Source of the DNA: Spizellomyces punctatus DAOM BR117
Lineage: Eukaryota
Length of the DNA: 64,000 nt
Strand: one strand, 5' to 3'
Assembly (NCBI GenBank): GCA_000182565.2
Contig: KQ257467.1
The position numbers were made by a program, and so were the translations under genes. Shown here in pieces: positions 2,776 through 20,200 of this stretch. The notes beneath the pieces were generated by a model, which searched no databases, had not been told where the DNA came from, and saw only the letters and a program-made list of their open reading frames with translations. Positions within the stretch are counted from its first letter, which is position 1, and each line of letters begins with the position of its first letter.

Positions 2776-3454
2776 TCACTCGTGCTGTGAAACGAAAAAG
2801 TTTGCTCCCTCAGGCTTCAAGTCATACTGGTCTGCAAATTCCTGTACATGCCATCCACCGCGATCCTCTGGTAATTTAAGATGCCTCAACGATTTCGACT
2901 GAGCAAACAGGATAAACACGTAGCGATGCAAATGGGTGCCTTTCGGCGGTGTGGGGGGATGATAGGAAGTGACAACCTTTCCCTTTTTAACGTCACCGTG
3001 CGTGATGTCGGTTACGACCCAATGACGCCAGCATCTCTTGGCGGGATGCTCGCGAGACGGGGCATCTTTTGTGTGATTGAGTGAGTGGAACGATTCATTT
3101 TCAATACTTTTGGCTAGTCAAATTACCAGGATCAGCCAGGACGAGTGTGTAGAGATCATCGGGATTCGGTGGACTGAATGAGACTTTTGGTTCATGTTCA
3201 GCTTCGGAAGGGGATATTTCATTCCCCAGTGATACTTTTCTGTTCTTGTACGAAATGTCCAAGGCGATGGTCGGTGTGAAATCAGATATCACTAACCATG
3301 ACCGATTATGAGTATTTTTGGTGGGCGATTCAATACAAAAGGGGGATGAAAATGATGCTTTTTTACCATCGGGAATTACTTGGCTGTCGACAAGGGCTTT
3401 ATGCACTTCCTTTAGCATGTTTTTGATAATGTCTGGACGGTAGAGCCTTGACAC
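2776..3454 (-). CDS. Phosphatidylethanolamine-binding protein (PEBP/RKIP/Tfs1 family); start uncertain
   Basis: Spliced translation gives VIPD..FTPT..LGNEISP..YTLVLADPDAPSR..WRHWVV..YHPPTPPKGTHLHRYVFILF, the PEBP DPDxP and GxHR signatures. Stop TGA at 2776-2778. Confidence 0.9.
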
Positions 3455-5290
3455 TTTTGATGATGATAGGCGGCAGAAACGCTTTTAGTTTTTGCCAGCG
3501 TTCTTTTTATACTTTCAACCCGTAAATGTCGTATTGTGTCATCGTTACGCGGGATTGTCCATAACAAAAGACATGGCGGGCGGGAATAAAAACGGGCTTT
3601 TTGCAGGGCGGGGGCTGCAGTTGACGGCTGCCCATCGGCTGGTCAGTTGCTTTGAAGAAGGCCCTGAATCCGTGGCTTGTGGGCCAATCTGTGCTGCGCC
3701 ATCCACCAGTTTGTTCATGTCGTTGAGTTTTGAATAAAGATGAGGTTAGAATAAGTGATGGTTATTCTTTTGGACAGCGGGCGATGAAGTAGATGAGCCA
3801 GTGTATATAAAAGGCGCAACCACCCAGGATATTCTTTTAGAGTATCCTCTACATTTGGTTGTTTTGCAAAGCCAGGGTTGCTAAACCTGTGTTCTTTTTT
3901 TGTTTCCTATATGATGGTTAGAACGACTGATTTTTAAGCGTTATGAAGCGTCAGCGATAGGAAAACGTTTGTGGACACAAACCTTGTGTTGGACATTTGG
4001 TCTGTTGGAAGGTTCCAAACTGATATGCCCAGTTTAAACCAAAGATGGAGAGACGCTAAACCAATGTGGCTGATGTCGTTCCCCAATCCCGTTGACCTGT
4101 GATACATGGAACGATAATACCAACATGTTCCATACTGTTTATGCATTGAGTGAGTCCAGATTTGTTGCGAGTTGCAGCCTCTACAGAGTTGCTCCTTGTG
4201 GGCTACTCTTCGAGTTCATCTGTTCAACACGTGCAAATAAACAAAAGCAACTAAACGGCGCCCAAATGACAGCAGAACGCAAGTGCCTCCCCCCTCCTTC
4301 TCCCCCTCGTACTGCACACAAACATGCGCAAACGGGCCGATTATCGTGCGATTTATCGCTTGCTTTTTCTTTTGCGTTTGTTTGCGTTTGTGATGCTTTT
4401 GTACCATGTATGGACTCTTGAATGAGCATTGTCACCTGTAATCCTCCCCCCTCCTTTTGCAAAATGGATCTGTGGAATGTTTACAAAAAAAGAATGTTGC
4501 GCACATCGTTACGTCCATTTGCCGTACATGGTCTCTGCAACTGTCCTCAAAAATCAACCCAAAATCAACACAAAAAAAAAAATTGGAGGAAAACTCCGCT
4601 CACGGAAATCGTTGAATTTCAACGCGTGTTTTTGAGCTTTTGGCTTACGCGGATTAAGGTCTTTTGAAGAGGTCCGTTTTTTTTTTTTTTTATTGCGTAG
4701 GTCTTTTGTGTGTGTGTTTTGTTGGGCTTTTTGAAAGCGTTTTCCGTTGCTTTAAAACGCTGCAAGTCGAAAAGGACTGTATTTACGCTTCACGGGCCAA
4801 CAGTTAAAGATATACACACACCGGAACTGCCAACATTTAAAGGACCCTCGCTTACGTTAAGGCTCTAGTTTGCCCCAGCTGGCCAGCGCAGCGTCTTTTT
4901 GGGTGGAAATAGTTTTAGGCGCAATTTACAAAACAACCAGCTTTTGTGCATTCCATTCTCCTCTTGCGAACGAATACACACAAGACGAAGAAGGCAAAAA
5001 GCCAAGGTGTACGCAGAGGCGCTGGATACCCCCTCTTTTTTGCTGGAGTGGAAACGGGCGAAACGGAGAACCTTGGGTTGCAAAGGAGAGAAAACACACC
5101 TTGTTTTCTTGGACTTTTTGTGTACTTTTCTATCTTGCCACTACACGACGGCATTTTCTCTGGCATCATATCAGGATTCTGGGTCTATTTCGCGCTTGCA
5201 GTTGGCATATCTCCTACCAAAACCAGGACGTTCCGGTTACCCCAAAGAATACCCTGTTTCGTTATCTCCTGACGAGCTTGCGTGCCCATC

Positions 5291-6113
5291 ATGTCCGTAT
5301 CGAGAGGAAACTTGGTGAGAGAATATAAAATCGTCGTGGTCGGTGGTGGTGGTGTTGGAAAGGTATGTTGAACAAGAACTTGCGCCTTTGTTGTTTCCAT
5401 TGTGATTCTTGTGTCGATTCCTGTTGATGCCGGAACAAGGGGAAGCAAAAAGTGAACAGTGGGCATGCTGGTGGAGCCTGTAGGATTCTCCCGCAATTGT
5501 AACTCACAATTATTTTCCATCTTCTTTTGCCTCCTTATTCTATCATCGTGATACATCACACCGTTTTGTGGATTGCTTTGACATTTACCAGTCGGCTTTA
5601 ACCATTCAATTCATCCAATCGCAATTCGTTGACGAATACGATCCGACCATCGAGGACTCGTACCGCAAGCAATGCGTGGTAGATGGAGAAACTGCGGTGC
5701 TAGACGTGCTAGACACAGCTGGACAAGAAGAATACTCTGCCATGCGGGAACAATACATGCGATCAGGCGAAGGATTTCTGTTAGTGTACAGCATAACTTC
5801 CCGGTCCTCTTTTGAAGAAATTCAAACCTTTCATCAACAAATTCTGCGCGTGAAAGACCGGGACTGGTTCCCAGTCACGTTGGTCGGAAATAAGTGCGAT
5901 CTTGAGGGTGAACGAGTGGTGGGAACCGGCGAAGGGAGAGAATTGGCAAAACTGTTTAGGTGCAAATTTATGGAGACGTCGGCGAGGAGTAAAATTAATG
6001 TCGATGAAGCGTTTTTCTCGTTAGTAAGGGCAATTCGAGATGAGAATAAGAAAACTCCTGGTGGAGGACAACAGACGGTCAAGAAGAAGAAGAAGCCGTG
6101 TATGGTAATGTGA
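5291..6113 (+). CDS. RAS1: Ras small GTPase; 2 exons
   Basis: [19 protein letters not shown], effector loop [25 protein letters not shown], polybasic KKKKK and CAAX CMVM. Intron 5364-5591. Confidence 0.97.
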
Positions 6114-7210
6114 ATGGGGCAAACAAAGACTCTTGAGGTTGTTTGGCGACGAGGTAGAGACGGCGAGTGTTGGAAGCGCGGAGCCAATTTGCGGTGATCA
6201 TGGAGGGTTTGGTCTTTTTCTGTCAGCAAAGTTACGTTGAACTTTTGCTGTCATTGATTTCGACGAGGGCACGACTGTCTTTTCATCATGAACAAACTAC
6301 GCTGAATTGGTAGTGATGAAAAGAAGGATCGAGGGACGATGGGAGGCTTCTCTCTCTCTCTCTGATTTTTGTGTACATTTCGATATTTTGGGGGAGCGAG
6401 AGGTTTTTTTTCGCAAGGGACAAGTACCATTTAATAATAGAGTTTCCCAACATTTTACAATCGTGGTGCGAACAGCCGGCTGCTACTGAAAGGGACTTTC
6501 CGTTGAAGGAGTGTCCATTGCGGGCCATCGCAATGCCTTATCCAATCCAACCCGTTAGCTCACCTCGTAACAGGCAATATTCCCTCCGCTCCGATACATC
6601 ACTAAAGTCACAACCACTATTCTTCCCGTTGTTTAATAGTTTCTTGATATTGGGAGCTGGTGGCTCGGACTCACTTGCTTGTGCATAGCTTCTAGAGGTT
6701 CGGACATCTGGAAAAATCAATTGGGATCAATGGACACTCCACCATCGATATCTTCAAGCTACACTGGACATTACTCTTGCTGATGATCCGGGACCACTTA
6801 CGGAAAGTACAATTAGCAGGACAAGTCGGGATCACGCCCTTTTTTATTGGTAAATTATACTAAAGTTAACTCCCTACGGTATGCCTTCACCAATATGACA
6901 TGTTTCTCTTCAGTTACATTGTATGTGTCTATGTGGAGTGCCTGACATTGTGTTTGACAAAGAAAGCGTAGTTTGGGCATTAGAATCTGCGTGCGGAAAG
7001 CTGTCGGGAAAAGCGACGTGAGAGAATCGGCTAGTCCAGCCACCATCGGACACATTATTTCAAAAGATTATTATGCTGACATTTTATATCGTCAAATCAT
7101 ATTAAGAAACACACTAATTTAAATGGCATCGCTAGATCGTATCAGTAGGTGCAGGCTCATAAAGCGACATAAAGATCACCACGACCCGTCACTGGCTTCC
7201 CTTGTCTCCG

Positions 7211-10200
7211 TCATCGCGGAGTGGGAGGGTTGACAGGATTCCGTGACTTGCTGTCCACTAAGGAGCGACGATCGCTCGGAGGTGAGGTTAATATTCCACT
7301 TCCTATCGATGAAGGGAACTCTAATTGAAAAGGGGATTCTGGTATGGTAAACGAGGCGAGTGACTTTGATGTGTTTAAAGAGAGGGGAGTTGGATTCGTT
7401 GAAGGCCTAGGGTCTGCTTCTCGCCTGTAATACTCGAGTCCTGCAAGCCATCGAGCACGATCTTGCAGATCCTGGGCCATGAAATACTGTAGAAAAGCAA
7501 GAAAGAACAGCCGGGTTTTAATCCGAGCTATATCTTTAGAATATGCTGAAGAAGTTATGGTACGTACGAGAGGCGGCACTGTCTTCAAAGCTTGTGTTTC
7601 TTGGCAGGTAACGTCGATTAAAGTTCTGCACGATCGATGACAGATCATCTTACAAGCTAAAATCATATTTTGATTTTGAGTTTGACCAGGATGCCGAAAT
7701 ATGCGTTTTCCTTGACCTTACCGGTGCATTCAAAGCCTTGGTTTTTATTACCCCATAGCGGTTCGTGGCACACCGCACAGTCTGTAGGCTTGTAATATTG
7801 CCTGAGTCTAAAAGCATGACCATAGCTCTCAGACTTTTCCGTGGCTTCTTTTATTCTTCTAATCACCGCCAATATCCGTTGCTGATCATTCTATCAAAAT
7901 ATGTCAATCATTAGCCGGCCACGGTAAACCGCTGATGCAAAACATGTAGCTACCGAATTCATGGCATCCAAGTCCTCTACGGGATTATGGATAAGCATCG
8001 ATGTTTTCAAAGAGAGCAATACACGGACGCATACCTTTTATTTTGGCAACATTCCGCTCAGCGACCACTAATTCATGCTCTGGAGTTTGGGTGGAAGACC
8101 TCGTTCGGGGTTTATTTGCTGATCTCGCAACAGCGTTGGAGACCTTGATAAGACCATCTCGCTTCCTTTCCTCCTCAGCTAGCTGAGTTTCCAGTTTTTT
8201 GCGATAATATCCAATGTCCTCTTCTATTATCTCACTGCTTTGTTCCAATGACTGGCTCGAGGAGTGAGCCCACCACAGTATGTTCATTTATCAGAAGGGC
8301 TGTAACTTACTGTTGACGTCGTAGAAGGATCTTCAGATGGGAGCAGCGATCTGTACCGGTCCTGTTCGAGCCGTAATCCGCGAAGACGATTTTGGGATGC
8401 CTCAATTTGATTTGTTAATGTCGTTCTGTTCAATTCACTTGATAAGCTCCACATCTTTTCAGCAGCTTGTAACATTTTCTCTTCAAGTGCTATTTCTCCA
8501 TCTAGCTTGCTGATCTTTCGTTGAACAGCGACTGTATCATTCTGCTCAGTGCCGCTTTCATTGGTCTGAATATACACTTTTGTCAATGTCTGAAACGGCA
8601 AATGATTGCTGTTTTGCAGAACGTTACTCACTATAGAACTAGTGGCTCGTGTGCTTATCTGGCCGATTTGATCTTGGTTGACCGCATGAACTTTGAGGAT
8701 GCAATCAATGTCCTTGCTGTTGGCGTGGATGAGCTCATTTTGCGCTACCACCTTGGCGATGAAAATGTCGGATCTGACTCAAAGCATAAGACTCGAATAT
8801 CTTTAAAATGATGGAAGGTACATGTCCTTACCTTATATCGACGACGAGACTTCCTTCGATGCTCCCCACATCTTTATCCCGGTCGTACATATATATCTTA
8901 AAGTCGCGCACAACCGCGTATCGTTGCTTCCAACCTTTCTTAACCTTTCCACCTTTTGGTACTTTCAGCCAACCCTTCAAGCCCTCCTTTGGATTAAACT
9001 CTACCGGAACTACATCAGAAGCCTTGGTCTGACCGGATTTTAATGAAAAGCTTGAAGATGTAGTGCTGAGTCGACGACTAAGACCATACTCCAATATCTT
9101 GGTACTATCATCTTCCCTTTCGGGCGAGAGTGGGGATTGGGAGTTTGACCGGGAATGGTCAGTCTTCAAGGGCTGGCTGTTTGTCCGGAAAAGCATGTTC
9201 CGCCAGCCACTCTTTGACCTTGCCTGATGCTTTTCTGGTGATCTTGTCATTTTGTGGTCAGATCTTGCACTGTCCGACATCCGTGTAGCACTGTCGTCTC
9301 CCATTTCCAACTGATGATGCAGCGCTGAGCATGTTTGTTCCAGCTCGTGTATTCGTTCAATGAGATTGCGGATTTTGGTCTCTAACAAACTGCATTGTGT
9401 CTCCATCTCGTCCTTGCCCCTCTGAGTCTCTGCGTATGATTGCTCCAACTCGTCTATGCGCAAGGCTTCCGAATTCATTTTCTCCTCCGCCAGTTTCACA
9501 GCACTTTGGAGAGCTGCATTCTCTGCTTCCAACGTTTTCCGATATTGCTGTTCGGTTGCGTAGCGCTGCTCGAGTGCCTCGTAGTCAACCTTGCATTCGT
9601 TATAGCGCGAACATTCCCTTTCCAGTGCACGATTAGCTTCCTCTAGAGTTACTTTTAAACGGTCGAGGTCCTCCTTCAAGTGGCCGTTTCGATCGGCAAA
9701 AGTTTTGTGCGATGACTTTGCCTCAGTCAACTGCTTATGTAGCTCTTCAATAGACGACTGAGCCTCAAAGTACAAGCTTTCGTAGTTTATGGCGTGCTGT
9801 GCGGATCTTATCTGCTTTTGCAGTTCTGCTTTGCTTGTCTCCAGTTCTTTACAGAGCGCCGTTATTTGGTCTTCCAAAACAGCCGTCTTCTTTTCGGCAT
9901 CTGACCGAGCTGCTAACTCTCGCTTAAGCTCAGCACCTAACCTCTGGGTCTCAGCATCTGCAAGCTTTTCCATGGATATGATAAGATTAGCTTCAGCAGT
10001 GTTCGCTCGTGTCATTGCGGCGTCTCGTGCATTCCGCTCCTCTTCCAGCTTCCTCAATAATCTGTCCACTTCCACTTCTAAGCAAGCCTTGCTCTTTGTA
10101 ATATCAGCCGCAGCAGCAGACTGTTGCCTAATCTCCTCGTTGGCCTGTTTGATCTGAGCACGCAAGTTTTCAAGCTCTCTCTCCATGCGCAAATTGGCAT

Positions 10201-12532
10201 CTCGAGCGCTCTGCAACTCTGCTTTGTCATTTTTCTCGCTATCCAGGGAGTGCTTTAAACGATCCAAAGACCTCTGCAAGTCCTCCCGCTCCCGCGCATG
10301 TCCATCTCGCGTTGATCGCAGCTGTTCCAAAGTTGCGTCCGCCATCTCTTTTTTCTTTTCGAGCGCCGTGACCAAGTTTTGAAGGTCGGATTGCTTCGAC
10401 AGTGACCCGGCCAGCTGTTGACGAAGAGCTTTTATTTCATCTTCGGAAGTTTGCTTTGCTACTGTAAGATCATGGATTTGCTGTCGAAGAGCATCGGCAT
10501 CACCTCCGGAGAGTGATCGCGAAGAACTTCGCTTGCCCATTGCCGCCAAATGCCCTTCATGGCCGGTATGGAGTGATACTTGCCATGAAATGGCTGGGAT
10601 AGCATCCTGGACGTACGTGTACCCCACGAATGGAAGATGCTGACCAGTGAACTCCTTCGTTTTCACCAGGGTTTTCTTTGTCACTTTCTTGCTCTCATCT
10701 TCCTCGTCCTCAAAGTACCTCGTATCATCAGGCCCACTTAGCTCGGGGATAAACGGTGGCGTCACTAGAGTAGAATCGTTAATGCTGACCAACCTTCTCC
10801 TACCCAACTGCTTAATAGATCAAATAGCGTACTGTTTCGGACCGCGCTCCAGTCAAATCCTTTAAACCACGGATGTCCTTGGATCTCCTGACTTCCTTGA
10901 CGTCCTAACCGAGTTTCCTTCTTGCAAATCAACCTGATGGTCATCCAATCAGTAAACGATCTAGTCGGCATTAATCTCACTTTCGTGCCCACCTTCTCAT
11001 CAAGTCTAATGCTTCTTCTGAAACGTCGCTATCTTCAGGGAACGCAAAATGTTTCTATAACAGTTATTGTTGAGCATTTGAGAAGCAACTCGATGCGCTT
11101 TTACGGAGCTTCGAGCGACAGTACCTCGTGATCCATAATCTTGCCGTATGTTTCCATCAACGATTCGGAATAGAACGGTACTTCATCATATAGGAGCTCA
11201 TACAGTATGATACCTGAAGGGGCACCGATGAACAAGATTTCTGGTGCTCATTACAAGGACACCGCCATTACCTAATGACCACCTGTTACAATAAATCAGG
11301 GTTTAGAAAGCCAATTGCTACTATTGCGACGACTCTCTGCCGTACCAGTCACATTCTCTTCCATATGTTGAATTTCCTTCGTGTGCGCGGAGAATTTCGG
11401 GTGATATATAGTCTAGGAGGTACAGGTTCAGCATGGTGTTAAATTGGTCAATAACCATTCGAAGTTACCTGGTGTTCCGACTGTTTGATGTGATGTTACC
11501 TGGGTACGAACCTCAAGTTTAAAGAAATTCACGATCAGGGATATCTGTTGCATGAAAACATACTGCTTTAGCATCGTCCATTCGAATGCATGAGCCGAAA
11601 TCGGCGAGTTTGAGGTGACCGGATCGGTCGATAAGGCAGTTTTCCGGTTTGACATCACTGAGACATTTGATAAGCTGGGGCATCAACTTTACTGACCGCA
11701 GAAAATAGTCTTACCGGTGTATGAAGTTGTGCTTATGCAGCTCATCCAAGGCGAGAAGAATTTGCGCAATATAAAAGCGAGCATCCTCTTCCCGCATTAC
11801 TTCTTCGCGATTATTCAGTAGAGATCGCAAGCTTCCTCCCGATGCATACTCCATGACAAGGTACAGATTTTCCTCATCTTGAAAAGCCGCATATAATGTT
11901 GTAATCCACTCCGATGCCTTTGCAAACACCAAAGCATCACGCTCTTCCATGAAAAAACCTGCCTGTAGTGGTAGTTCCAGCCAGGAGTAAAGCAACCATT
12001 TAGCCTAGATTCGCAAGGAAACAAGAAATGCCGTGCATACTTCTTGACGGGTCAGCAAGTCTGTCTTCTTCAGTATCTTCATGGCATAAACCTTTCTTGT
12101 TGGCTTATACTTCACCAGACAAACCTACAATAGATCCACACTCGCCTCAAGTTGTATTGTAATGCCGTAGCCAGAAAAACGTTACCCTTCCAACAGCGCC
12201 TGTGGCCAGCGTTTTCACAATATCAAAATCAGCGGTGTTTATTCGTAGCGCTTGTAGTCTCGTCATTAGCTTCTCATCTGCAATTTCGGCGATGGTCAAA
12301 ACATTTCAACCTCCTTGAATTAGTCAATAACAATTCACCAACATTTGTGAACAAAAGCAGCCATGTGCCCAGTTTGACTGCTAGCTGCTGTTTTGCAGTC
12401 GGTATAGACTGCAAGGAAAAAGTCCAGCAAGGCCTCGAGGGAAAGTGACGGAGCTGCGAGTTCATTGGATAGGACCTGCGATATCTGGTCCAGCCGAGGC
12501 CTGACGTGGGAAGCAAACTCTGCTGAAGCCAT
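7211..12532 (-). CDS. Rho-associated (ROCK/DMPK family) AGC kinase: kinase, long coiled coil, split PH containing 2 HR1 repeats and a C1
   Basis: N-terminal [59 protein letters not shown]; hydrophobic motif [13 protein letters not shown]; about 450 aa coiled coil; PH-N GWLKVP..GWKQRY; C1 [22 protein letters not shown] helix [12 protein letters not shown]. Confidence 0.92.
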
Positions 12533-13999: not shown

Positions 14000-16063
14000 A
14001 TGTTTCGACCCATCCTGCCAGCATGTCGTGCTCCACCTATACCAGTCATGGGCTGCTGTCGCCGGCATGCGGTAAGATATCTCATATTTGCACTTTTAGT
14101 GGATATTGCTTTGATACCTCGTAGACTTTGGCTGGCCCTCACCAAAATAGAATGTCCAGGATGCTCGCACCAACCTCTAAAGCTGTACACGCTGCGGATA
14201 ATGCACATTCTGCAGTTAGTCACAATCTTCTGTTAAGGGCAGGATACATAAGGCAGGTAGGTCTCCACGGCTTCTTGGGGAATGGTTAATTGCCATCCAC
14301 TAATAGTTTAGTGCCAAAGTCTTCGGCCGGAATGTACAGTTTTTTGCCGCTCGCCCTACGTGTTCTTGGAAAAATAGAAAGGATCATCGACGAAGAAATC
14401 CAACGTGTAGGTATGCTGGCACATCCAATGGACTAACATCAAGGTGATTCATCTGCTCATAAATGAGGTTTGCGCAGGTGGTCAAAAGCTATCTTTGCCA
14501 TGTCTCCTCCCATCCGATGGTTGGAAGAAAACGGGACGCTGGGAATCAACTGGTTCTGAGGTACGCTGCTAGCTCCCCTCTACCTGGATCTGAAAATAGA
14601 TATGTATACCGTGCTATAGATGTTTAAGGTTACCGATCGGAAAGGAGGCGAGTTTTGCTTAGCACCAACTCACGAGGAAGAGATCACGCAGCTAGTCGCT
14701 GCAGAGGTTTCCTCATGGAAACAACTACCGCTTCGCCTATACCAAACAGGTGAATAGTCTGGAATCGATATGTAATACTGTAGCCCATATTCATATCGAA
14801 ACATGTAGGACGTAAATATCGCGATGAAGCACGGCCAAGGTCGGGGCTGCTTCGTGCCCGGGAATTCATCATGAAAGACCTTTACTCTTTCGATGCAACT
14901 GAAGAAGCTGCCTTAGCAACCTATGATGAACTAAGGAATGCTTACGACCGAATATTGAAAAGGATTGGCATACCGTTTGCTGCTGCAGAAGCTGATAGCG
15001 GAAATATTGGAGGAACGAGGTCTCACGAGTACCATTTTCTATCAACTGGTGGGTTTGCTGTGAGGGATAGCGTTTCTGTCAAGCTGAAGGCTGATGACTA
15101 CGGGCAGTTGGCGAAGATACACTTTTGACCTGCAACAATTGCGGGTATACCGCGAATGAAGAAAGAGCAGTGGGAATCCTAAGGCCACCGCAGAATGACG
15201 ACATGACCACGGAGGAACTACGATTCAGCTTCGGAAGACAGGATCAGAGCGAATGGTGCAATGCTAGTGTTACGGTACCAAATGGTCGCACGCTGAATCC
15301 CGCAAAGCTTAAAGCACATCCAGCCCTGAAAGGATTAGTCGTCAAATTCAATAATCCAACGGAGTCAAATGCCTTTCCCAACGAAACGAAATTCATTGAT
15401 CACAGAGTTCGAAGAAGGGAAACTGCATTGGATGACTCTCGGACGCATATTGGAGACTTCACCATGATCCAACATGGTGATGGGTGTTCCGTTTGCAACA
15501 GTGCATCTCAACACCATGATTCGCAGCCATCTCAATTCCTCCAATCCCATCGGGCGATAGAGATCGGTCACACCTTTTTCTTGGGTACAAAATATTCAGC
15601 CTCCCTAGGTGCGACATTCAAAAACGAGAAGCAAGAGGTTGTTCCGATGCAAATGGGCTGCTTCGGCATAGGCGTGACTAGGATGATGGCCGCGGTGGTT
15701 GAGGCCAGCCATGATCAGCATGGCATTATTTGGCCAGAGTCTATTGCCCCATATCGCATATGCATCGTTCCAATGTTAAACAAGAAGAGCGCGCTAGAAC
15801 AACAGCGGGCCATATCAGGTGCCATTGAGCAACTTTACAGCCTTTTAAAGGATGCAGCTGGGCAGGAGGATATTGTTGTTGACGATCGAGAAGATATGAC
15901 CCTCGGATTCAAAATGAAGGATGCCTCGCTGATTGGGTATCCTTACATGATCGTGTTGGGAAAAACGTTCTTGCAGGACGGATTGGTGGAAGTCCATATA
16001 AGAAAAACGGAGGAAAAGCGCTTGATGAGGATCGAAGATATTACAACAATGTTCAATCATTAG
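14000..16063 (+). CDS. AIM10: Mitochondrial (bacterial-type) prolyl-tRNA synthetase
   Basis: Basic presequence [88 protein letters not shown]-terminal anticodon-binding domain. Confidence 0.93.
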
Positions 16064-16974: not shown

Positions 16975-17218
16975 TGGGGGCCCAAACTGCGCGAAGTCCA
17001 AAGTCGGAGATCCTCCGACATCGCTTGGCTGATAAAACTGGAAACGGCAAAGTTTGGGGCGTCCCTCGTCATTTACCTTTTTATGGATAAATAATGCATG
17101 TGATTCCACGTGGCTTCAGAGCTTATCGTTTTGGGCGGCGACCAAAAGTCGACGGTTTCGTCGCACATTTGTAGGACACTTGCCAGAAAGCACTTTGACC
17201 GCATCAACAGGACGCAGG

Positions 17219-20200
17219 ATGACTGTCAAGGATGTTATCAAAAATAGTGAGTGGATTGTAAAGTTTAGTTATTTGACCCTGCAAGCTCTTGACACCTGCC
17301 TTGTAAAGAAATCCTCCAGGACATGGTGCAGGCGGTGAACCCGCCGGGCAAGTGGAAGGTTATGGTAGTGGACGACGAGGCCCTTCGAATTTTGAATACT
17401 GTTTGCAAGCTCTCGGATTTAACGGACGAGCATGTCATTTGTAAGAACTGAAGCTATTGACGTTTCGACCGTACCGTCCAATTTACCCTACAGTTTATAG
17501 CGGTAGAAGGGCTTGCGAAACGAAGGCAGCCTTACCCCGATAGGGAAGCGATTTACTTCATTTCTCCGGATCCTGCCTCAGTTCAACGCATCATTGATGA
17601 CTACACGCAACCGAAGCCTCCCTATGCTGCCATTCATATATTTTGCTCTGCCCGTAAGTCCCCGTGTTCAAATGTGTCAACCGTGCTTTTTGGTTCACAG
17701 ATTGCTGTTTGTGATTGTAGCTCTCTCAGATACTCTGTTTGAGAAAATAAAACGGTCGCCTGCTTCGAAATTCATACAAAGCTTGAAGGAACTGAATGTT
17801 GACTTCTCAGGTACAGTGGCATTGAAGAAGAGATGCGATAGGTTCAGGAAACTGACTTTTCGGCGAATCAGCGCCCGAATCGCACGTCTTCACCGTAGAT
17901 TTCCCAAACTCACTCAAAACCGCTTTCAACCCTCAAACTCCCTCTCTGCAAAACTACGAGCTGGAAAAGATTGCAAAGAGGGTATGTACAGCGTCTTCCA
18001 CAACCGCATACGGCATCCGTGTCGGTAATCTAATGCCAACATCCTATTCCACAGCTCGCGTCAGTACTAGCATCTTTAGGGGAGTATCCGTATATCCGTT
18101 ATCATGATCCATCCGGCGGGAAGAAGGCCAGCGCGGCCGGTAAACTAGCAGAATTAGTTCAGGCAGAGCTCGATAGTTTGTCTCGCATCAACCCAAACTT
18201 TCCGCCGCAAACTCAATATCAGCGAGCAATCCTGGTCATTATGGACAGAGCTGTCGATCTGCTTACACCCATCATCCATAGTTTTTCGTATCAAGCAATG
18301 GTGATGGATTTACTCGGCCTTGAAGATATGAAATACAGGTGCAGCCAAAACGAGATACTGCGTGGATGCTTGGAACAGACCGTGACTGATCTTTTCCTAT
18401 GTAGCCCTGCCGACGGTGACCCGGTTAAGCTGGACGAGAGTGACCTTGTGTGGGTGCGTTCAGGGTTCTTTTGCGCTTGCGGCTTAGGCGACAGGCCATA
18501 ACCTGTACATCATTTTCCTTTTACAGAATCAGGCTCGACACTGGCACATAGCGGAAGTCATGGAATATCTTGCAGACGCAGTAAATAAGTTCACTACCGA
18601 GAACAAGGCGGCCGCATTCGCCATGAAGCGGAATAACTCGGGGTGCGTTGATACCTAGGGTCACTGGTGCATGATGGGAAGTCACTGACTGTTACTGGTT
18701 TTGATACAGAGGGTCAAGCTTGGATCAGATCCAGCAGATGAAGGATACCATGGCTCACTTGCCTCAGTTCCAGGAAATGAAAGCCAAGGTGTGCATATCC
18801 GTGATCAGAAAGTTGCGCGAATATTCGCGTTTACTAACGATGGTGATCAGTATTCTCTTCACACAAGTCTTTGCCATGAGGCAATGAAAGCCTACAATGG
18901 CCGCCGATTAGAACGGATATCACAAATAGAGCAAGATCTTGCAACGGGAGAAACGTCAGATGGAAGGTCCCCACGACTTTCTTTGATGGAAGTCATATCG
19001 TTACTGGATGATCCGAGGATCGAGTATGTATACATTATCAGTATCGGTCGTTCAGCGGCATCTTTTTAAAGACAGAAATGAATTTGTTCGATTCAGGCAT
19101 GAAGAGAAACTCCGTCTTGTGATGTTCTACGTAATTGCGCAAAATGGAATGTCGGACAGCGACCGGCAAAAGCTTATGGAGCACGCGAAACTGACGTTGG
19201 AGGAGTCTCAAGCTGTGCATAATCTCAGTATGTTAGGAGTACGATTGAGTGCCAGCTTAATGGGACGCAAAGGAGACAACAAGGTACATCATTAGCGTTG
19301 ATTTCACGGTGACCTTGATGTCCAGCCTCTGACTTGGACCATGCGACTTCATACGTTCATCAGGGGCAATACGCGTATGGCATGCGCGATAAGGGGAAGG
19401 AACACAAGTTTGAAAATAGCCGATTTACACCCATCATCAAATATATCCTAGAGGTGAGTGTAACTCAAATCTGGTGTCATTTCCGAGCGATATTCATTGA
19501 GCGCGACGTAGGACCAAGTCAAAAATGTCGTTGAGGGGATAACCTTTCCGTGGGTCCGTGAGCCGCCATCTTCCGAGCTAGGTGGCAGGCCAATGACATG
19601 GGCGGCATCTGGATCAGCAGCGTCAGGAGCTCCATCTGCGGCCGGATCTGTGAGAACTAAAGCATCCTGGGCAACACGACGAGCAGTAGTGTCCGCTAAC
19701 GCGAATGGGACTGCGACGGGATCTGGCGGGCTGGCGGGGCTGCAACCGCGTCCAACAGAGAATTTGCGCGCAAATGGGCCTCGGGTGATAGTGTTTGTAC
19801 TAGGGGGCCTGACGCCGAGCGAACTGAAGGCGTGTTACGATGTCATGAAGGACCAGCAGAGGGAAATCATTGCTGGTAAGCACGCGCCTGTGAACTTGGG
19901 TATCTATTTTGCAAAGGCATCTTTAACCGAATATACATGATTTTCGTATTGATACTCAGGGTCTACCCACCTCATCAATCCTATGCACTTTGTCGAGGAT
20001 GTTAAAGATCTGCACCGACATGGTCCTTCTAGACCACCGCGACCCGCAGGATCCAGCCGTGCATCACTTCCGGAAAGGGCAAGTAGCAGCCCATCAATAG
20101 GCGATAGATCGCCACGGTCGACGGCGCGAGATATGAATGGTGGTTCGGCGTACCCAGCGCGATCTTCCAAGCATTCTACAGCACGCACTGATTCTGCTCC

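Follow-up and report, generated by a model that had tools for sequence, protein, structure and literature searches.

Among the kinases closest in layout to the gene described here, animal ROCK1/2 join a DMPK-type kinase to a long coiled coil and to a PH domain that a C1 zinc finger interrupts ahead of the final strand, and they carry neither a CNH domain nor a CRIB motif. MRCK has a C1 before an unsplit PH domain, followed by CNH and CRIB, and PKN and fungal Pkc1 carry their HR1 repeats N-terminally, together with a C2 domain, and have their PKC-type kinase at the C terminus. The subject of this report is a DMPK-family kinase gene of the chytrid Spizellomyces punctatus DAOM BR117 (assembly GCA_000182565.2, contig KQ257467.1), located on the minus strand at 12532-7211 of the 64,000-nucleotide stretch that was analyzed (the window, to which all positions refer). 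The chytrid kinase shares with ROCK1/2 the kinase type, the long coiled coil, the C1-split PH domain, and the lack of CNH and CRIB (neither was found by a Pfam scan of the protein or by sequence inspection), but it has two HR1-like hairpins between the N-terminal part of the PH domain (PH-N) and the C1, and it has no match to the ROCK Rho-binding domain (RBD; PF08912). Like MRCK/Genghis khan (GEK), to which it gives its best pairwise kinase score (411 bits), it has a PH domain of the PF25346 family, although it has none of the C1-PH-CNH-CRIB arrangement of MRCK. Its tandem PKN-type hairpins, and a C1 nearer to that of PKC than to that of ROCK2, recall PKN and Pkc1, although it is not built in their order.

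The component domains are all known, and the pairing of HR1 with C1 has already been tabulated for a microsporidian GEK kinase. That protein, Encephalitozoon cuniculi ECU01_1320, an AGC/DMPK/GEK kinase, is entered in PMC4280135 (table S1) with “HR1 and C1_1,” whereas the main text of that paper gives HR1 to another kinase. PMC2078597 treats the E. cuniculi protein as Cbk1-like or as a PKC that is divergent and possibly Rho activated. In contrast to the chytrid kinase, ECU01_1320 is ~850 aa long, and its published descriptions, as far as they were covered, do not locate the HR1 within a split PH domain. The literature, as far as it was covered, holds no account of HR1 repeats inside the split PH domain of a fungal kinase or of their spread over early fungi, and the main text of the preprint bioRxiv 10.1101/2020.06.12.142943 contains 0 occurrences of ROCK and 0 of MRCK.

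A first-pass annotation, made from the letters of the window, had proposed a split PH domain holding two HR1-like hairpins as well as the C1. This architecture is confirmed, by Pfam for the PH domain and the C1 and by structure prediction for the arrangement as a whole, and all of the peptides quoted at that time are present in the spliced protein. The Pfam matches are PH_MRCK (PF25346; 76 bits, aa 952 to 1062) and C1_1 (PF00130; 45 bits, aa 1238 to 1288). PH-N (aa 950 to 1032; 8680-8986, minus strand, as for all features of this gene) supplies the first six strands and contains a conserved basic loop with 7 K/R in 21 residues; it is separated from the C1 by ~205 residues, versus 25 to 30 in three ROCK-type proteins. 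In an AlphaFold2 model of aa 940 to 1330 (63 aligned rows; pLDDT 88, pTM 0.63), six PH strands are followed by the two hairpins in order, an extra helix (aa 1216 to 1233, model helix 277-294; 7831-7884), the C1 (7601-7818), and then the last PH strand and closing helix (aa 1299 to 1323; 7415-7570). The model aligns with the split PH domain of ROCK2 (2rov; Z 13.7, rmsd 2.5, 113/117 residues, model range 11-384) and with the MRCK1 module (7z6e; Z 15.2, rmsd 3.6, 126 aligned). The two PH halves are thus predicted to fold together around the C1, as in the ROCK subfamily and as had been suggested earlier. Since many ordinary PH domains score Z 12 to 13.6 against the model, the alignment indicates a complete PH domain and is silent on its subfamily. 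A Foldseek search with the whole PH-HR1-C1 module returned PH and C1 structures, with HR1 absent among the matches listed. All eight His/Cys ligands of the C1 are intact, and it retains the Pro, Trp-Gly, and Gln that we take to form the lipid cleft. It matches PKC C1 structures at E values of 1e-11 and better, versus 3.5e-4 for the C1 of ROCK2.

Hairpin 1 (HR1a; aa 1061 to 1122) lies entirely within exon 14, and a 66-nt in-frame intron (8631-8566) separates it from PH-N in the gene model. Its earlier boundaries, 8526-8353, needed only slight extension, to 8529-8344. Hairpin 2 (HR1b; aa 1143 to 1211; 8224-7960) is more divergent and has a long loop; it had been ended at 8037 and in fact runs past an intron. 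Two stretches of the chytrid protein match HR1 (PF02185) at 18.5 bits, short of the Pfam gathering cut-off of 33.1; with the whole protein as query, Pfam lists no HR1 at E ≤ 0.5, and a genome-wide HR1 scan missed the kinase locus. Among solved structures, a search by sequence reached PKN HR1a at an E value of 0.79 only, and not at all with a divergent relative as query. At E ≤ 1, HR1 is found in 7/9 chytrid copies and HR1_TOCA likewise in 7/9. Of 28 divergent relatives chosen for the scan, two exceed the Pfam HR1 cut-off, with scores of 40.1 and 39.4 bits, and a further 13 list HR1 beneath it.

Profiles built from each hairpin family and run against decoys were more telling. The hairpin-1 profile finds 5/5 true HR1s of the same genome at 21.9 to 34.4 bits, with the best of 173 coiled-coil decoys at 11.8; the hairpin-2 profile is marginal (11.9 to 17.9 bits versus a best decoy of 13.7). 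In the reverse search, 31/55 copies of hairpin 1 and 3/54 copies of hairpin 2 score above the best decoy. Profile-profile comparison to true HR1s gave 97% for hairpin 1 and 78% for hairpin 2, with nine coiled-coil controls at ≤22%, and matched the two hairpins to each other at 97%. On the basis of these decoy-controlled and profile-profile tests, HR1a appears to be a divergent PKN-type HR1, and HR1b, for which the case is weaker, may be a more eroded tandem copy. The earlier reading of both repeats as HR1 thus stands for hairpin 1 by its profiles and is weaker for hairpin 2, and it fails at the Pfam cut-off. It is very improbable that the hairpins are artifacts of gene prediction or ordinary coiled coils without kinship to HR1, and for HR1a this reading is largely refuted by the decoy-controlled tests. 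HR1a is predicted to form a two-helix hairpin of the ~65-aa HR1 type (helices 6-41 and 44-74, pLDDT 87), but this fold is common and not diagnostic, and there are no RNA junction reads. However, relatives exceed the Pfam HR1 cut-off, and among 20 homologs from a kinase-only search, which stand outside the profile alignment, the insert is present in 17/17 with a PH-N, the other three having none.

The same genome contains other HR1-bearing genes. One frame (L005:1186-2892, on G000 C5) reads by eye as a C1 followed by a true HR1 (39.6 bits) and a RhoGEF domain of the DH type. HR1a finds its best match in the HR1 of this frame, and it is possible that the frame encodes a guanine nucleotide exchange factor with its own Rho-binding hairpin, a feedback module. 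There are also two separate Pkc1/PKN-like genes (L001/L003/L045 on C4 and L002/L004/L046 on C23), each with two HR1s and a kinase match close by.

When 1.84 billion representatives were searched with a profile, 44 matched at 1e-30 and as many as 1375 at 0.001; 150 matches were listed. Among the named matches from this and the kinase-only search, the kinase family occurs in Chytridiomycota, Monoblepharidomycota, Neocallimastigomycota, Blastocladiomycota, Olpidium, and Amoeboradix, and also in the aphelid Paraphelidium, Zoopagomycota, Mortierellales, and Endogonales, with the higher ranks assigned by us. With one protein taken per species label, PH-N is present in 40/43 named fungal-lineage proteins, the remaining three (3/43) being shorter models. 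By HR1 profiles built partly from these same proteins, 35 of the 40 have two HR1s after PH-N and five have one. No HR1 match was found in named animal or Capsaspora ROCK/MRCK proteins (0/27). The earlier contrast with animal ROCK, said to hold only a C1 in its split PH domain, stands in substance, because the ROCK region that has been called HR1 (aa 420 to 550) differs in type, being a parallel coiled coil (PMC13737125). The C1 went undetected in several homologs, including that of Paraphelidium. Three short homologs on long branches (P0105, P0106, and P0118; 844 to 1060 aa) have a kinase, PH-N, one HR1, a C1, and the C-terminal part of the PH domain, and the two that were kept in the final tree fall inside the fungal clade; their sizes, two of which match those of microsporidian GEK kinases, and their branch lengths suggest that they are microsporidian. 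Dikaryan species are absent from the named matches, with no search aimed at Dikarya having been made, and the yeast AGC table in PMC2078597 does not list a DMPK subfamily. Overall, the HR1-in-PH layout is kept across early-diverging fungi and is not specific to chytrids. Its association with zoosporic fungi in the first-pass annotation proved too narrow, because homologs with the insert are found in Mortierellales, Endogonales, and Zoopagales. The layout also suggests a re-reading of the microsporidian kinase that was once filed as Cbk1 or a divergent PKC.

The genome contains genes that, from their motifs, we take to encode two Rho1-like proteins, one Rac, one Cdc42, and one further Rho. Because the genome's own Rho1 has introns, a chytrid Rho1 stand-in (5 differences in 182 residues, none at the interface) was modeled with GTP, Mg, and both hairpins, with alignments unused. 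The Rho1-GTP complex scored 0.84, versus 0.02 for the best of three controls; the mark applied is reached by 51/78 solved versus 2/108 mismatched microbial pairs and by 39/65 versus 2/126 eukaryotic ones. The runs share at least 66% of contacts, and the partner pLDDT is at least 71. Confident contacts fall on HR1a only (aa 1075 to 1101, about 8487-8407), with none on HR1b, and on the Rho side they involve residues 38-41, 56, and 65-76, which are presumably the switch regions. Rho1-GTP is thus predicted to dock on HR1a, and the model supports the earlier proposal of Rho sensing at the membrane-binding end.

This prediction cannot rank Rho1 over Rac or Cdc42, which counts against a Rho1-specific reading, as the tool used also passes near relatives of a genuine partner. 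It is rather unlikely that the HR1s bind Cdc42 or Rac instead of Rho1, making the kinase an MRCK-like Cdc42 effector in which HR1 replaces CRIB. The best kinase score is to MRCK, Rac- and Cdc42-like genes are present, and HR1_TOCA, which we take to be the Cdc42-type HR1, reaches a best E value of 1.6e-5 in the chytrid copies, compared to 1.6e-4 for HR1, and tops the Atlas matches at 0.79 (all are <0.9, so this is a lead only). However, the divergent members favor PKN-type HR1 over HR1_TOCA (40 versus 27 bits for P0073 and 39 versus 18 bits for P0085), and the layout of the tail of the kinase is ROCK-like.

We consider it probable that Rho1 recruits the kinase via HR1a at its membrane end. By analogy with animal DMPK kinases (PMC4905274; 10.1101/2022.03.11.483953), the protein would form an extended dimer, constitutively active, with the kinases at one end and its position set by the membrane end. 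There, the split PH domain, through its basic loop, and the C1 would contact acidic membrane, and HR1a, in the same PH loop, would bind membrane-anchored Rho1-GTP via its switch regions. Rho would recruit and orient the kinase, in a coincidence detection of lipid and Rho, and would not be an on-switch. Within the cortex, the coiled coil would fix how far away the kinases stand, and their probable target there is the myosin-II regulatory light chain or its phosphatase; HR1b would be accessory, serving a second GTPase or packing. In animal ROCK, ~17 nm of coiled coil separate the Rho-binding site from the membrane end, for which reason its engagement by membrane-anchored Rho is disputed; the same source describes a ruler model (PMC4905274). 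Rho docking at the membrane end would avoid this offset, and early fungi appear to solve the distance problem with a PKN-type Rho dock within the membrane-binding PH domain. The PH-C1 module of human ROCK1 is itself recruited to Rho zones (PMC13646499).

Several points weigh against recruitment by Rho1. Both hairpins lie under the Pfam HR1 cut-off in this protein, and a fold search with HR1a alone gave no match at E ≤ 0.001 and PKN HR1a at rank 46 only, although that search is nonspecific and uninformative. Because the complex resembles the solved RhoA-PKN HR1a structure (1CXZ), the model shows likeness, not binding, and its pass may reflect memory. Conservation at the 15 predicted interface positions does not exceed that elsewhere in HR1a (P = 0.30), and some HR1s bind no GTPase, such as PKN1 HR1c (10.64898/2026.01.30.702881), so that HR1b may be inert. 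The kinase substrate is a guess, and the varied length of the kinase-to-PH spacer (400 to 746 aa among all named fungi) weakens a strict ruler.

The low HR1 scores in chytrids and the lack of special conservation at the interface would also fit hairpins that derive from HR1 but bind no GTPase, with a role in oligomerization or autoinhibition or as a spacer and with lipids alone placing the kinase. Nonbinding and oligomerizing HR1s have precedent, and the idea is plausible for HR1b in particular, which makes no Rho contact in the model. As an account of the whole insert we regard it as improbable. The interface core (A/G1082, K1085, M1086, and Q1101) is conserved, as are the exposed motif residues of HR1a (E1076, A/G1082, E1084, K1085, M1086, and Q1101) over 44 thinned rows; at least one HR1 is kept in 40/40 named fungal PH-N homologs, and the Rho1-GTP complex passes.

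The coiled coil of the chytrid kinase is ~157 aa shorter than in close relatives, with an in-frame gap at ~9982, within exon 12. The kinase-to-PH spacer is 540 aa here, compared to 671 to 746 aa in 21 other Chytridiomycota, 400 to 714 aa in the other named fungal groups, and 741 to 758 aa in three ROCKs, and it thus falls short of the conserved ROCK-type spacer (~740 aa). Residues 625-781 of a close relative are unmatched anywhere in this genome. Among independent contigs, three low-depth, intron-retaining sets fail to bridge 9676-10085, which proves nothing. Either the ruler has truly been shortened or the assembly is in error at this point.

In fungi whose actin behavior resembles that of animals, the kinase is a candidate upstream regulator of myosin II, a function that is predicted. 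The HR1-in-PH kinase is a naturally occurring test case for recruitment-and-ruler models, and it is found in a chytrid with imageable actomyosin cellularization. Myosin II is required for chytrid cellularization (PMC11974727), and the main text of that paper mentions neither ROCK nor Rho. We infer an actomyosin role for the kinase partly from its family, as DMPK kinases regulate actomyosin in animals (10.1101/2022.03.11.483953). A serious but unlikely alternative is that Rho binding is real and the output is polarity, wall synthesis, or trafficking, as for an effector of the Pkc1 or Cbk1 kind. The kinase is kept in the walled, noncrawling Mortierellales, Endogonales, and Zoopagales, and in PMC2078597 the microsporidian member was taken for a Cbk1-like kinase or a divergent PKC. 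However, two Pkc1-like genes exist separately in the genome, as do Cbk1-, LATS-, and Dbf2-like ones.

Against solved structures, the kinase domain scores 411 bits to MRCK, 380 to ROCK2, 364 to DMPK, and 275 to Cbk1. The final kinase tree has 40 rows (23 fungal-lineage, 9 MRCK, 5 ROCK, and 3 NDR-type from this genome; citron and DMPK rows are not among them), derived from 48 rows by dropping 11 (near-duplicates, one long branch, and the PKC outgroup) and adding the three NDR-type rows. It supports the fungal clade at 99/93 and separates the DMPK family from the three NDR-type rows at 98/93, while ROCK and MRCK are joined at 92/47 only, which was not starred. A quick PKC-rooted tree joins ROCK and MRCK at 98 and leaves the fungal rows unplaced. 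In AU tests, fungal+ROCK (P = 0.25) and fungal+MRCK (P = 0.38) both escape rejection, and fungal+Cbk1/LATS is narrowly rejected (P = 0.035). With the Cbk1 score and the tree pointing the same way, an NDR/Cbk1 identity is rejected, in agreement with the first-pass annotation, and separate Cbk1-, LATS-, and Dbf2-like genes exist in the same genome. A single PH_MRCK locus was found there, making this the only DMPK-family kinase found in the genome.

Thus, the kinase is the fungal counterpart of animal ROCK/MRCK. The plain name ROCK that it had been given went too far, given its higher score to MRCK and the AU results; the label “ROCK-like DMPK kinase” is justified, because of the C1-in-PH layout and the lack of CNH and CRIB. 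The RBD (PF08912) is matched by 0/13 chytrid proteins at E ≤ 0.5 and not at this locus, although 2/5 ROCK-type proteins scanned also lack it. Descent of the HR1s from Pkc1, implied by the earlier view of the protein as a hybrid, is conjectural. A broader history can be proposed, in which HR1-in-PH was ancestral in opisthokonts and the fungal protein is an unduplicated ROCK/MRCK pro-ortholog and the missing chytrid link from Rho1 to myosin II. Animals would have lost the HR1s, kept the C1 in the same loop, gained an RBD or a CRIB, and retained a residual Rho response of PH-C1; the link would serve cellularization and crawling and would have been lost in yeasts. Taken together, this set of proposals is doubtful. 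Elsewhere among the AGC kinases of the genome, two matches (L042 and L043, at G000 C3:1202245 and 1239757) have identical scores and printed sequence and lie ~37 kb apart, which reflects either a recent duplication or an assembly duplicate.

The kinase gene comprises 19 exons that join into one open frame of 1390 aa: 12532-12343, 12277-12186, 12124-12041, 11962-11715, 11657-11564, and 11499-11469 (exons 1 to 6); 11412-11346, 11282-11272, 11213-11125, 11054-10993, 10933-10833, and 10764-8832 (exons 7 to 12); and 8773-8632, 8565-8311, 8251-8035, 7976-7954, 7890-7722, 7656-7568, and 7486-7211 (exons 13 to 19). The introns are 56 to 81 nt long and all GT-AG; they rest on these ends, the open frame, and homologs and not on RNA junctions, of which there were none over the gene in one raw run (267 short reads of uncertain strand meaning, almost all of them at 7100-7487). 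The spliced frame equals database protein P0001, named an AGC/DMPK/GEK kinase by its source, in every letter. A short upstream exon candidate with an ATG and a GT donor (12802-12748, minus strand) could lengthen the N terminus and is absent from the database model.

The remaining features follow the DMPK-family layout of an N-terminal helix bundle, an N-terminal kinase, a long coiled coil, and PH/C1 at the C terminus. The N-terminal helical region (aa 10 to 78; 12234-12505), where matches to MRCK, ROCK, and DMPK structures start at aa 9 to 30, probably corresponds to the capped-helix-bundle dimerization region of DMPK kinases. The kinase domain follows (aa 81 to 346, Pfam 83 to 346; 10864-12227), with the motifs YAMK, HRD, and DFG intact, and then the AGC C-terminal tail found by Pfam (aa 347 to 410; 10604-10863), with the hydrophobic motif FVGYTY. 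The long proline-free coiled coil (aa 448 to 843; 9305-10492) is assigned by a crude heptad score and alignment. By sequence, a Ser/Pro-rich low-complexity linker (aa 844 to 945; 8999-9304) leads to the PH domain, and a disordered Ser/Pro-rich tail (aa 1324 to 1390; 7214-7414) ends the protein.

Convergent with the kinase gene is a Ras-family GTPase gene (5484-6113, plus strand; Pfam Ras, 179 bits) with a CAAX-type end. Further frames in the window, recognized by eye only, are PEBP-like (2776-3484, minus strand), prolyl-tRNA-synthetase-like (15098-16063, plus strand), and Sec1-like (17036-18028, plus strand).

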